DNA of 64,000 nucleotides, from IMG/VR virus record IMGVR_UViG_3300042360_000330, one strand, 5' to 3'. A model generated the notes under the pieces. It was given only the letters and a program-made list of their open reading frames with translations, was not told where the DNA came from and searched no databases. Below are positions 29,784-31,158 of this stretch, piece by piece. The first letter of the stretch is position 1. Every line of letters starts with the position of its first letter. The position numbers and the translations under genes are program-made. Source of the stretch: a virus. Taxonomy: Duplodnaviria > Heunggongvirae > Uroviricota > Caudoviricetes.

Positions 29784-29856
29784 ATCCCTGTGGTGAAATG
29801 GTAAACACAACGGGCTTAAACCTCGTAAGCTGCTGGTTCGACTCCAGTCAGGGGTA
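29784..29856 (+). tRNA. tRNA with Leu anticodon TAA but class-I (5-nt) variable arm
   Basis: Leu-type D-arm GTGGTGAAATGGTAAACAC, anticodon arm ACGGG-cttaaac-CTCGT, variable loop AAGCT only, T-arm GCTGGTTCGACTCCAGT, discriminator A. Confidence 0.55.
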
Positions 29857-29860
29857 CAAA

Positions 29861-29953
29861 ATTAAAGTGGCGGAATTGGTAGACGCAAGTGATAAGCGGT
29901 AACTCGGATGAAGTCAACTCAGTTACGTACAGGTTCGAGTCCTGTCTTTAATT
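29861..29953 (+). tRNA. tRNA-like, 93 nt, classical tRNA-Leu D-arm (GCGGAATTGGTAGACGC); anticodon unresolved
   Basis: Acceptor ATTAAAG/CTTTAAT, T-arm ACAGGTTCGAGTCCTGT, internal hairpin GTAAC...GTTAC; probably class II Leu/Ser or a degenerate copy. Confidence 0.4.
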
Positions 29954-29959
29954 TTAATT

Positions 29960-30031
29960 GGTCTTATAGTTTAATTGGAAAAACTTATCGCTACGAACGA
30001 TAGAACGTAGGTTCGACTCCTACTAAGACCT
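29960..30031 (+). tRNA. tRNA-Arg(ACG)
   Basis: Acceptor GGTCTTA/TAAGACC, anticodon arm TATCG-ctacgaa-CGATA, T-arm GTAGGTTCGACTCCTAC. Confidence 0.75.
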
Positions 30032-30036
30032 CAACT

Positions 30037-30108
30037 GCCCGTATAGTTTAATCGGAAGAACTAAACGCTTCTAACGTTTCAGTCCTGGTTCGAGTCCAGG
30101 TATGGGTT
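30037..30108 (+). tRNA. tRNA-Arg(TCT)
   Basis: Anticodon arm AAACG-cttctaa-CGTTT, T-arm CCTGGTTCGAGTCCAGG. Confidence 0.7.
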
Positions 30109-30114
30109 CAAAAT

Positions 30115-30183
30115 GCGTCACAGGCTAAGGTAGCCAAATGGATTCCAACCCCATAGGACAGAGTTCGATTCTTTGGTGGCGCG
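30115..30183 (+). tRNA. tRNA-Trp(CCA)
   Basis: Acceptor GCGTCAC/GTGGCGC, anticodon loop ttccaac, T-arm CAGAGTTCGATTCTTTG; short D-arm. Confidence 0.55.
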
Positions 30184-30276
30184 CAGAAGACGGAGAACAG
30201 AGTAAGGATTAAATTCCGTTAGGCTATCCCTTACCAGTTTCTCCTGAAGAAATTATTAATTTAAAAGCAAGTTATC

Positions 30277-30783
30277 ATGAGTAAGTATCAAAAAGCACTA
30301 GTAGTAGATGCCAGCTTTATCGCAAGATCAGTTATAAGTACAGAAAGAGCTTTCGTGATTTCTTACAAAGGTAATGCTGAAGTGATAGCTGAACATCCAG
30401 AAACATTTAATCTGTACAATCCAGAACTAACAATTTATAAACCTTCTATTATTAGAGTGTTTACATATGTAAAACATAATATTCAAAAGGTACCTCTAAC
30501 AAGAGAGAATATTTACCGAAGAGATAATTTTGAATGTGTGTACTGTGGATGTTCAAATCAAAAAATATTAACATTAGACCATGTTATACCTCAATCAAAA
30601 GGAGGAAAAGACGCTTGGGATAATTTAGTAACAGCATGTCGTCCATGTAATCATGAGAAAGCAGATTTAACATTAGAGGAATATGGCAAGGAAATCCCAG
30701 AACCAAAAAGACCTCACTACTTAATGTTAATGAGAACTATGACACACATACCAAGAGAATGGGAATCATTTCTATTCTTTTAG
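30277..30783 (+). CDS. HNH endonuclease (putative homing endonuclease inside tRNA array)
   Basis: 168 aa; ECVYCGCSN...LDHVIPQSKGG...NLVTACRPCNHEK classic HNH motif. Confidence 0.85.
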   Translation: MSKYQKALVVDASFIARSVISTERAFVISYKGNAEVIAEHPETFNLYNPELTIYKPSIIRVFTYVKHNIQKVPLTRENIYRRDNFECVYCGCSNQKILTLDHVIPQSKGGKDAWDNLVTACRPCNHEKADLTLEEYGKEIPEPKRPHYLMLMRTMTHIPREWESFLFF

Positions 30784-30917
30784 TAAAGTAAGTTTGGAAA
30801 ACTAAAAATAAGTTCATATATTTAGGTATAAGAAAGAAATATCACCTACTACAAAACGGCGCGCGAAACAATAGAATCCCGACTTGTACTATCTGGCAGG
30901 TCAGATTAGGTGAATAG

Positions 30918-30989
30918 GGGCAATTGGTCGATTGGTTTAGGCACAGGATTGCAAACTCTGTTAGGTTGGTTCGATTCCAACATTGCCCT
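30918..30989 (+). tRNA. tRNA-Cys(GCA)
   Basis: Acceptor GGGCAAT/ATTGCCC, anticodon loop ttgcaaa, T-arm GGTTGGTTCGATTCCAACA. Confidence 0.55.
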
Positions 30990-31084
30990 CATTGAAGGTT
31001 CGACCCTCTACCAAATGTGTTACACCCACAGATGGATACTAAGAGGGAGCTACCGATTGATAAGTGGTCGCACACGCGACAAAT

Positions 31085-31158
31085 GCCCGAGTGGTGGAAT
31101 TGGCAGACACGCTAGACTTAGGATCTAGATATTGAGAGTTCGAGTCTCTCCTTGGGTA
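31085..31158 (+). tRNA. tRNA with Leu anticodon TAG, Leu-type D-arm, short variable arm
   Basis: GCCCGAG-TG-GTG-GAATTGGCAGA-CAC, anticodon arm CTAGA-cttagga-TCTAG, variable ATATT, T-arm GAGAGTTCGAGTCTCTC, discriminator A. Confidence 0.6.

Follow-up and report, generated by a model that had tools for sequence, protein, structure and literature searches.

The stretch of DNA analysed here (the window) comprises 64,000 nucleotides of a Caudoviricetes virus, IMG/VR record IMGVR_UViG_3300042360_000330, and carries a cluster of tRNA genes that includes two leucine tRNA genes devoid of the long variable arm, together with two further Leu-type elements, an endonuclease gene and a conserved non-coding element (Table 1). 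Three more genes come up under relaxed ARAGORN settings: Ser(GCU) (29461-29546), Trp(CCA) (30115-30184) and a third CAU tRNA (32395-32465). The cluster spans all 20 amino acids, with Leu provided by the UAA and UAG class-I genes only, and its gene order is common to the related loci L008, L023, L042, L050, L071 and L108. Of 22 tRNAs, 21 are followed by N73-CA and not by CCA, and the two leucine genes share their N73-CAA trailer with the other tRNAs of the cluster, an arrangement without an encoded CCA which fits the CCA-adding-type nucleotidyltransferase of the phage. No phage genome near-identical to the window was found in INPHARED, where the UAA tRNA also had no blastn match, and the host probably belongs to Bacteroidota or Flavobacteriia.

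Table 1. Features of the tRNA cluster and of its surroundings, in positions of the window
Feature	Position	Strand	Basis
tRNA gene cluster	28558..32839	+	ARAGORN: 24 genes at default settings
odd1, Leu-type tRNA-like	29625..29701	+	ARAGORN 'Leu gag'; Rfam 42.2 bits
tRNA-Leu(UAA), class-I	29784..29857	+	ARAGORN 'taa' (74 nt); Rfam RF00005 61.1 bits; sequence reading
odd2, Leu-type tRNA-like	29860..29954	+	ARAGORN 'Ala agc'; no Rfam match
HNH endonuclease, within tRNA cluster	30277..30783	+	Pfam HNH_5 9.9e-15, HNH 9.2e-14
Conserved 94-nt non-coding element	30991..31084	+	24 copies, ~94-95% identity
tRNA-Leu(UAG), class-I	31085..31159	+	ARAGORN 'tag' (75 nt); Rfam RF00005 60.0 bits
RNA healing-and-sealing cassette, directly 3' of tRNA cluster	32909..36582	+	Pfam
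Metallophos phosphoesterase	32909-33559	+	Pfam
AAA_33 P-loop kinase	33560-33946	+	Pfam
RNA ligase	34055-35179	+	Pfam
cREC_REC cyclic-phosphate-processing protein	35653-36582	+	Pfam
Nucleotidyltransferase, CCA-adding/poly(A) polymerase family	48433..49167	+	Pfam PolyA_pol 7e-18, PolyA_pol_RNAbd 1.2e-05

Both leucine genes exceed the gathering score of the Rfam tRNA model (29), the UAA gene at 29784-29856 (E 7.7e-12) and the UAG gene at 31085-31158 (E 1.5e-11), and their cloverleaves, of 73 and 74 nt respectively, are laid out as ATCCCTG TG GTG AAATGGTAAA CAC A ACGGG CTTAAAC CTCGT AAGCT GCTGG TTCGACT CCAGT CAGGGGT A and as GCCCGAG TG GTG GAATTGGCAGA CAC G CTAGA CTTAGGA TCTAG ATATT GAGAG TTCGAGT CTCTC CTTGGGT A. 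The former is composed of a 7-bp acceptor stem, a 3-bp D stem with a D loop of 10 nt (AAATGGTAAA) and the variable loop AAGCT (5 nt), while the latter has a 3-bp D stem, a D loop of 11 nt (GAATTGGCAGA), the variable loop ATATT (5 nt) and G37. The anticodon loops (CTTAAAC for UAA, CTTAGGA for UAG) both consist of 7 nt and contain U33 as well as a purine at position 37, and A73 lies at 29856 and at 31158. The initial annotation had described Leu anticodons (UAA and UAG), a discriminator A and a variable loop of 5 nt, all of which are found in both genes. It had also quoted a single form of the D arm, from which the Leu-type 3-bp D stem is present in both genes, but the D loop of the UAA gene is AAATGGTAAA and does not have the GAATTGG form.

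With variable loops of 5 nt, neither gene has the class-II architecture; each presents a Leu anticodon and a cloverleaf that is complete apart from its short variable loop (about 5 nt), as in the type-I tRNALeu. Minimum free energy folding returns the cloverleaf or near variants of it, and the alternative fold with a long arm that the initial annotation had envisaged is not possible, given that 73-74 nt leaves no space for such an arm.

In E. coli, leucine identity resides in A73, A15:U48, G18G19 and A20a, along with the D/T-loop contacts, neither the anticodon nor the long arm being required, and the size of the arm is a major identity element for SerRS (review PMC9976931). The set of elements used by the E. 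coli LeuRS (A73, U8:A14, A15:U48, G18G19 and A20a) is complete in both the UAA and the UAG genes, in which the identity set of no other synthetase is visible; the long arm does not form part of the E. coli set. When the anticodon was masked and the two genes were compared with 2011 tRNAs, the best matches were short Leu tRNAs (131-133), followed by long-arm Leu tRNAs (107-110), with the best non-Leu tRNAs at 73-77, while the only similarity to E. coli was found, at a weak E-value, in the D-arm region of tRNA-Leu. On the basis of these features, the two genes most likely encode working leucine tRNAs.

Among all the Leu-type D arms of IMG/VR, arm-less genes are a small minority: a scan based on the D arm only, which takes in host tRNAs at prophage ends, yielded 73 parsed tRNAs, two arm-less, four with 11 nt and 67 long. 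One pattern scan recovered arm-less Leu tRNAs from at least 119 viral and at least 120 bacterial contigs, the bacterial matches being located mostly inside tRNA arrays. Many of these genes are located in the arrays of Nostoc, Calothrix, Tolypothrix and Acaryochloris, and all six Leu anticodons were found among the arm-less genes. When 98 diverse arm-less Leu tRNAs were aligned, U8, A14, A15, G18, A20a and U48 proved invariant, with G19 in 97 and U33 in 95 of these sequences and always A or G at position 37; A35 is also invariant, although this is partly ascertained, as the rows were picked by their Leu anticodon. A73 is present in 97 of 98 viral and 169 of 176 genomic arm-less Leu tRNAs. The cloverleaf of the 98 homologues has 98.6% of its cells paired, with compensatory changes in 19 of the 20 pairs and covarying anticodon stems, and reaches a covariation score of 0.914, in comparison with 0.24 for shuffles and at most 0.18 for slid partners, a sign of selection on this fold. 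The homologue sets were gathered by pattern and by ARAGORN, two methods biased towards good cloverleaves and the Leu D arm, and a part of this conservation is therefore due to ascertainment; the tertiary core is equally conserved in the 40 rows that fall outside the D-arm scan pattern.

The loss of the arm is confined to Leu. Within the same loci, the Ser variable arm has at least 15 nt in 76 of 77 viral and 62 of 64 genomic cases, and the Tyr variable region has at least 10 nt in 41 of 42 viral and at least 12 nt in all 34 genomic cases, whereas the Leu variable region ranges from 4 to 25 nt, a Leu-specific loss which fits the role of arm size as a major identity element for SerRS. Orthologues of the UAA gene with 92-97% identity occur in eight loci (L042, L071, L024, L031, L050, L108, L033 and L020), and those of the UAG gene, with 89-99% identity, in L113, L023, L104 and L005. 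The orthologues of L023 and L008 have the same acceptor and T arms but variable regions of 11 nt, the slot on the 3' side of the 94-nt element is occupied by Leu tRNAs with variable regions of 17, 11 or 5 nt, and the tRNA-Leu(UAG) of phage T5 has one of 13 nt. Given these orthologues with 11- or 17-nt variable regions in sister phages, the arm was lost stepwise.

The two further elements with a Leu D arm were described in the initial annotation as lacking a standard anticodon arm, which is confirmed here. In odd1, the acceptor stem, the Leu D arm and the T arm are intact, position 73 is G, the CAA trailer is absent, and the site of the anticodon arm is taken by CCATC-GAGA-GATGG, which forms a hairpin of 5 bp capped by a GAGA tetraloop; a linker of 10 nt comes next. 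In odd2, an acceptor stem is accompanied by the D arm GCG-GAATTGGTAGA-CGC, a T arm and T73, again with no CAA trailer, and the 41-nt middle forms a hairpin adjoining the T arm, with no anticodon loop. In L050, the slot of odd1 has just an acceptor and T-arm minihelix, and the odd2 homologues of L108/L020 and L050 keep the frame with unrelated middles of different length, the acceptor being broken in that of L050. Small introns can be rejected, as an exhaustive test of single contiguous deletions, which sought a 5-bp anticodon stem and a 7-nt loop with U33, restored no anticodon arm in odd1, odd2, L108 or L373, and the intron mode of ARAGORN added nothing credible. Both odd1 and odd2 appear to be non-decoding tRNA-like relics, with odd1 probably a decayed or non-decoding paralogue.

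The 94-nt element adjoins the 5' end of tRNA-Leu(UAG), and its 3' hairpin is supported by two compensatory pairs. It matches no Rfam family at E<=10, and a covariance-model search for divergent copies found a single copy in the window and only the known copies in approximately 200 loci, while the only INPHARED match covers 92 nt of spacer, in Flavobacterium phage immuto. This element is possibly a leader or a small RNA.

The initial annotation proposed either structurally minimised Leu tRNAs or genes that read UUA and CUA with another identity. The latter reading, in which class-I tRNAs from a different isotype, their anticodon having shifted, would recode these codons or be inert, draws on the tRNAscan-SE 2.0 paper, where the pairing of a Leu anticodon with a short variable loop is precisely what marks the human case, but it is highly improbable here. 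The nearest-neighbour test rejects another isotype, given that the masked bodies score 107-133 with Leu tRNAs and no more than 77 with any different isotype. The two genes also retain the Leu-type D arm, A15:U48 and A73, lack both G3:U70 and the long arm, and belong to a family that includes all six Leu anticodons. Recoding is also rejected, because both codons correspond to Leu in a conserved enzyme, GDP-mannose dehydratase, in which, by comparison with 1rpn, UUA stands opposite Leu at 13 of 21 positions and CUA at three of five. The phage has a GC content of 31%, its Leu codons are UUA (66%), UUG (7%), CUU (13%) and CUA (12%), and the codons of the UAA and UAG tRNAs make up nearly all of them, so that, with UUA accounting for 66%, recoding would harm nearly every protein. 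It is also unlikely that the UAA and UAG genes are pseudogenes or non-translating tRNA-like RNAs, whether as decoys for tRNA nucleases of the host or for LeuRS, as processing punctuation of a polycistronic RNA or as decaying copies, even though the non-decoding Leu-derived odd1 and odd2 sit in the same cluster, relatives such as L373, L370 and L360 hold tRNA-framed RNAs with long, unrelated middles, and the tRNA region of T5 is annotated with "tRNA-like stable RNAs with unknown functions". Both genes have canonical 7-nt loops, A73 and the shared N73-CAA trailer, the anticodon stems covary across the 98 homologues with a (partly ascertained) invariant A35, and these two genes are the sole Leu decoders of a complete set, in agreement with the codon usage.

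The evidence thus favours structural minimisation, given the Leu-type bodies and the retained LeuRS elements, and the UAA and UAG genes are likely to be functional Leu tRNAs of a large phage, of class-II descent, with the arm shrunk to a minimum of 5 nt. A variant in which the arm of such functional tRNAs was lost under selection, to avoid recognition of the class-II arm by a nuclease or a modification enzyme, is rather unlikely. It would be in line with the full tRNA set, the repair cassette after the cluster, the CCA-adding-type enzyme of the phage, the concentration of arm-less Leu tRNAs in phages and mobile tRNA arrays, and the evasion of anticodon nucleases by sequence changes in phage tRNAs, as published (PMC10264068). 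However, no bacterial nuclease specific to the class-II arm was found in the literature searched, where the bacterial Schlafen, considered as a candidate, targets several class-I tRNAs, cutting them in the anticodon arm, and not class-II tRNAs, the retention of the Ser and Tyr arms is equally explained by the needs of their synthetases, and the graded series of 17, 13, 11, 7 and 5 nt resembles a relaxed constraint, the alternative being a neutral shrinkage that LeuRS tolerates. It is similarly doubtful, if conceivable, that the arm-less Leu tRNAs would form a distinct, horizontally spreading lineage in phages and mobile arrays whose arm loss was an adaptation against an arm-recognising factor of the host or of a competitor, alongside the repair cassette, with odd1, odd2, their relatives with exchanged middles and the 94-nt leader as functional, tRNA-scaffolded small RNAs and not as debris.

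The closest published case is the type-I tRNALeu(CAA) of Streptomyces coelicolor, which is leucylated, and in which 5 nt is the shortest variable loop that permits good charging (Fan et al., NAR 2019, PMC6614811). It shares the 5-nt variable loop with the phage tRNAs and occurs alongside class-II tRNAs under a single LeuRS, but is a chromosomal, housekeeping tRNA, and its loop, ACAGC (A44-C48), has C48 in place of the invariant U48 that pairs with A15 in the phage family, while A73, present in both phage tRNAs, is reportedly unused in the S. coelicolor system (PMC6614811). The LeuRS of E. coli does not charge this tRNA (PMC6614811), and bacterial LeuRSs therefore do not all accept every arm-less tRNALeu. 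The present data suggest that many bacterial LeuRSs accept a type-I tRNALeu that has retained A15:U48 and A73. Animal mitochondrial tRNALeu (type I), for which A73 and A14 are reported as identity elements (PMC9976931), also has a short variable loop, but is organellar, with its own LeuRS, reduced, floppy structures and an unrelated sequence, whereas the phage tRNAs have a full bacterial-type elbow and D arm. In the engineered E. coli tRNALeu (Larkin et al. 2002; Asahara et al. 1993, 1998; via PMC9976931), bacterial LeuRS charges molecules without the long arm, and even without the anticodon arm, as long as A73 and the tertiary contacts of the D/T loops are preserved. This is exactly the set of elements kept by the phage tRNAs, although the minimal E. 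coli tRNALeu are laboratory constructs and the arm-less form of the phages is natural, conserved and widespread.

Phage T5 (NC_005859) resembles the present cluster in its dense tRNAs interspersed with HNH endonuclease genes, and its stable tRNA-like RNAs parallel odd1, odd2 and the structured spacers found here, but it differs in the longer variable region of its own tRNA-Leu(UAG), and no DNA similarity to the window was detectable besides the tRNAs. Arm-less genes for Leu(UAG) and Leu(UAA) are present in cultured T5-like phages of Vibrio, as in Vibrio phage vB_ValS_X1 (Demerecviridae), which has two arm-less Leu genes with CCA encoded. The bacterial tRNA arrays are described as mobile, phage-like clusters of 20-40 tRNA genes with homing endonucleases nearby, located on chromosomes or plasmids, unlike the phage-borne cluster, and the passages searched in these papers do not mention a missing Leu arm. 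A literature search for arm-less phage tRNA-Leu returned only the S. coelicolor case, generic statements and a passing remark on cyanobacterial variable loops of 5-18 nt (PMC6933170). Given the S. coelicolor tRNA and the many viral, phage and array examples, the view in the initial annotation that bacterial tRNA-Leu is always long-armed was overstated, and its description of the two genes as unusual holds by the textbook rule, but does not set this phage apart: arm-less phage Leu tRNAs are real, under-described and not unique to it.

During infection, the UAA and UAG tRNAs would be transcribed as part of the tRNA cluster and have both ends trimmed, with the CCA end presumably added enzymatically, given that the genes encode N73-CAA and that the phage has a CCA-adding-type enzyme. 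The LeuRS of the host would then leucylate them through A73 and the elbow/core, as the E. coli LeuRS does, and tRNA-Leu(UAA) would read UUA and UUG, with tRNA-Leu(UAG) reading CUA and other CUN codons.

Teaching, isotype models and arguments on tRNA evolution all make use of the class-II rule for bacterial tRNA-Leu. The window and its hundreds of homologues show that this rule fails regularly in phages and mobile arrays, and that the failure is confined to Leu, the class-II family whose synthetase reportedly needs no arm, with the Ser and Tyr arms being kept. The type-I tRNALeu, treated as an oddity in the 2019 paper on S. coelicolor (PMC6614811), is in this way a concrete class of tRNA for annotators to expect, and the arm-less Leu tRNAs provide natural, comparative support for the LeuRS identity rules established in vitro. 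They are also candidates for the question of whether phage tRNAs may alter their shape, beyond the sequence of the anticodon loop, amid the defences that target tRNAs.

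The leucine supply of the tRNA cluster, which covers 20 of the 20 amino acids once the tRNAs added by relaxed ARAGORN settings are counted, consists only of tRNA-Leu(UAA) and tRNA-Leu(UAG). As read directly from the sequence, the acceptor stem measures 7 bp and the D stem 3 bp in both genes (the D loops are AAATGGTAAA in the UAA gene and GAATTGGCAGA in the UAG gene), the anticodon arm is normal, with a 5-bp stem and a 7-nt loop, the T arm is also normal and the discriminator is A. The variable loop has 5 nt in each, i.e., AAGCT (UAA) and ATATT (UAG). This reading confirms the short variable loops described in the initial annotation, and no other fold could accommodate a long arm, as 73-74 nt leaves no spare sequence. 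An HNH endonuclease gene also lies within the cluster.

Features of the tRNA cluster and of the genes and elements associated with it
Feature	Coordinates	Strand	Remarks
39-nt motif, three copies	28174-28212, 28482-28520, 30786-30824	+	repeat family D8
tRNA cluster	28558-32839	+	24 genes, ARAGORN default; most confirmed by Rfam
tRNA-framed element, ~116 nt	29341-29456	+	acceptor GGTTCCT/AGGAATT, T arm and A-CAA trailer around a long middle
tRNA-Ser(GCU), non-canonical class-II	29461-29546	+	ARAGORN relaxed settings only
tRNA-Met(CAU)	29551-29621	+	ARAGORN call
Leu-D-arm element	29625-29701	+	acceptor stem, Leu D arm and T arm kept; G73
tRNA-Leu(UAA)	29784-29857	+	Rfam 61.1 bits
Leu-D-arm element	29860-29954	+	41-nt middle, hairpin adjoining T arm; T73
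tRNA-Trp(CCA)	30115-30184		added by relaxed ARAGORN
Non-coding element, 94 nt	30991-31084	+	abuts tRNA-Leu(UAG) 5' end
tRNA-Leu(UAG)	31085-31159	+	Rfam 60.0 bits
Spacer	31160-31235	+	3' of tRNA-Leu(UAG)
Third CAU tRNA	32395-32465		added by relaxed ARAGORN
RNA repair cassette	32909-36582	+	directly after tRNA cluster; domain matches
CCA-adding-family nucleotidyltransferase	48433-49167		

The class-I cloverleaf pairs were counted in an alignment of 98 diverse arm-less Leu tRNAs, both window genes among them. Pairing was found in 98.6% of the cells, a value partly ascertained by the collection of the alignment through ARAGORN and a parser requiring near-complete stems, and compensatory changes, which this ascertainment does not touch, were present in 19 of the 20 pairs. 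The covariation score was 0.914, where shuffles gave 0.24 and slid partners no more than 0.18. U8, A14, A15, G18, A20a and U48 are invariant (the ascertainment does not bear on U48 either), also among the 40 rows outside the scan pattern used in the searches, which required a Leu D arm, an NAG or NAA anticodon and a T loop at a short distance. Pair 1-72 is G:U in 41 of the 98 tRNAs and A:U in 13, with G1:U72 in the UAG gene and A1:U72 in the UAA gene of the window; in E. coli tRNA-Leu this pair is G1:C72.

In E. coli, the determinants of leucine identity are A73, the A15:U48 Levitt pair, G18G19, A20a and D/T-loop contacts, the anticodon and the long arm both being dispensable; U8:A14 has been shown to matter for the LeuRS of Aquifex (PMC9976931, a review). 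All of these elements are present in both window tRNAs. Each was also compared, with its anticodon masked, with 2011 unique tRNAs covering every isotype in the retrieved loci; the best matches were arm-less Leu tRNAs (131-133), followed by long-arm Leu tRNAs (107-110). By these elements and neighbours, both tRNAs have Leu-type bodies. In 5421 of 5426 E. coli genomes, the sole similarity lies where an annotated tRNA-Leu has its D arm, a short match with a weak E-value.

The initial annotation had also proposed that UUA and CUA might be read with another identity, and this is unsupported by the Leu-type bodies and by the aligned codons; the best non-Leu isotype reached 73-77 in the masked comparison, against 107-133 for Leu, and the reading was rejected. 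In the phage GDP-mannose 4,6-dehydratase, which is 57% identical to PDB 1rpn, 13 of the 21 UUA codons and three of the five CUA codons align with Leu, and therefore both codons mean leucine. The UAA and UAG anticodons cover the Leu codon usage of the phage (UUA 66%, UUG 7%, CUU 13%, CUA 12% and CUC plus CUG 2% in 42 ORFs, at a window GC of 31.4%), and the insertion of another amino acid at two-thirds of the Leu codons would be ruinous. Both window genes are real and conserved arm-less leucine tRNAs that are probably functional. It is also conceivable that the loss of the arm evades a defence, since the RNA repair cassette, the CCA-adding-family enzyme and the tRNA set give the phage the means to provide tRNAs of its own and to repair them. 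The cassette genes encode a Metallophos phosphoesterase, an AAA_33 P-loop kinase, an RNA ligase (PHA02142 OB fold plus RNA_ligase) and a cREC_REC cyclic-phosphate-processing protein, which together form an RNA healing-and-sealing cassette and suggest a counter-measure to tRNA-cleaving defences. However, no direct support was found for evasion through arm loss, and class-II tRNAs are not targets of the bacterial Schlafen nuclease characterised to date.

Within the same loci, the Ser variable region has at least 15 nt in 76 of 77 viral and 62 of 64 genomic tRNAs, and that of Tyr at least 10 nt in 41 of 42 viral and at least 12 nt in 34 of 34 genomic tRNAs, whereas that of Leu ranges from 4 to 25 nt (viral) and from 5 to 15 nt (genomic). 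This pattern matches the identity rules, in which the arm is dispensable for LeuRS. The gene order of the window is common to close relatives, among which the UAA-gene orthologues of two related loci (L023 and L008) have identical acceptor, D and T arms and a variable region of 11 nt. In the Leu tRNA that occupies the slot after the 94-nt element, this region measures 17 nt in one locus (L365) and 11 nt in two (L364 and L375), and 15 copies have 5 nt. In the tRNA-Leu(UAG) of phage T5 it has 13 nt. Within phage lineages, the arm was shortened in steps.

The 94-nt element has 24 copies of about 94-95% identity, in 22 IMG/VR contigs, the window and Flavobacterium phage immuto, where it lies within an annotated 'hypothetical protein' upstream of tRNA-Ser. 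It had no match in Rfam at E<=10, and its predicted fold is multi-stem, with two compensatory pairs in the 3' hairpin. A Leu- or Ser-type tRNA nearly always follows within 0-3 nt, and some close relatives have the element while others (L008 and L108) lack it, which suggests that it is mobile. The spacer on the other side of tRNA-Leu(UAG) is closed by a stem (AATTAGAG...CTCTAATT) and contains internal hairpins, and the sequence at its start (AAATTAGAGTTAGCTTATAG) is found again after this tRNA in many relatives. A further structured or tRNA-like RNA may lie here. Copies of the 39-nt motif (AAGnAAnTTTGG...TTCATATATTTA) precede both halves of the cluster, and resemble Bacteroidota-type promoters (TTTG ... 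TAnnTTTG), which would fit a Flavobacteriia host.

As the initial annotation had noted, the two further elements with a Leu D arm have no standard anticodon arm. In 29625-29701 it is replaced by a CCATC-GAGA-GATGG hairpin, and 29860-29954 has no anticodon loop; the removal of any single segment never restored the arm in either. The N73-CA trailer (mostly CAA, rather than CCA) that follows 21 of the 22 genuine cluster tRNAs, of which tRNA-Ala alone encodes CCA, is absent after both. Homologues of 29860-29954 in the same slot of L108/L020 and L050 keep the frame around unrelated middles of different lengths (with a broken acceptor stem in L050), and most relatives lack the element, while the L050 slot of 29625-29701 holds only an acceptor and T-arm minihelix. 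The best reading of both is as Leu paralogues in decay or as tRNA-framed RNAs, comparable to the annotated 'tRNA-like stable RNAs' of phage T5. Directly 3' of the 94-nt element, three relatives (L373, at 1608-1720, L370 and L360) have further tRNA-framed RNAs, with acceptor stem, Leu-like D arm and T arm around an unrelated middle of 60-100 nt, and their repeated occurrence hints at a possible scaffold role for the tRNA frame. Two more tRNA-framed elements (29341-29456 and 29461-29546) occupy the 223 nt that separate tRNA-Ile from tRNA-Met. The tRNA-Met(CAU) called by ARAGORN at 29551-29621, not detected by Rfam, has a short D region and an unusual T loop (ATCGTTA) and keeps its position in L050 and L008.

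Arm-less tRNA-Leu genes are not unique to this phage. The scan pattern matched at least 119 viral contigs, in whose listed loci ARAGORN found at least 185 such genes (at least 105 unique) with six of the six Leu anticodons, and at least 120 bacterial genome contigs. In at least 72 of the bacterial contigs listed, five or more tRNAs lie within 8 kb at the locus; these are arrays of tRNA genes from Nostoc, Calothrix, Tolypothrix, Acaryochloris, Sorangium, Flavobacterium, Chryseobacterium and others. The 75-nt UAG gene was matched by 301 cultured phage records, two of which were checked: in Vibrio phage vB_ValS_X1 (Demerecviridae), the loops of both Leu(UAG) and Leu(UAA) have 5 nt and both genes encode CCA, and Gordonia phage Fryberger has a 7-nt loop. 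By frequency the arm-less genes are a minority, with two among 73 parsed tRNAs from viral contigs picked by the D arm alone (four had 11 nt and 67 were long). The type-I tRNALeu(CAA) of Streptomyces coelicolor is charged by its own LeuRS, and the minimum loop for good charging is five nucleotides (PMC6614811), the length found in the window tRNAs. The pair is a new phage member of this rare but documented kind of tRNALeu, and the population to which it belongs, in phages and mobile tRNA arrays, is large and has barely been described.
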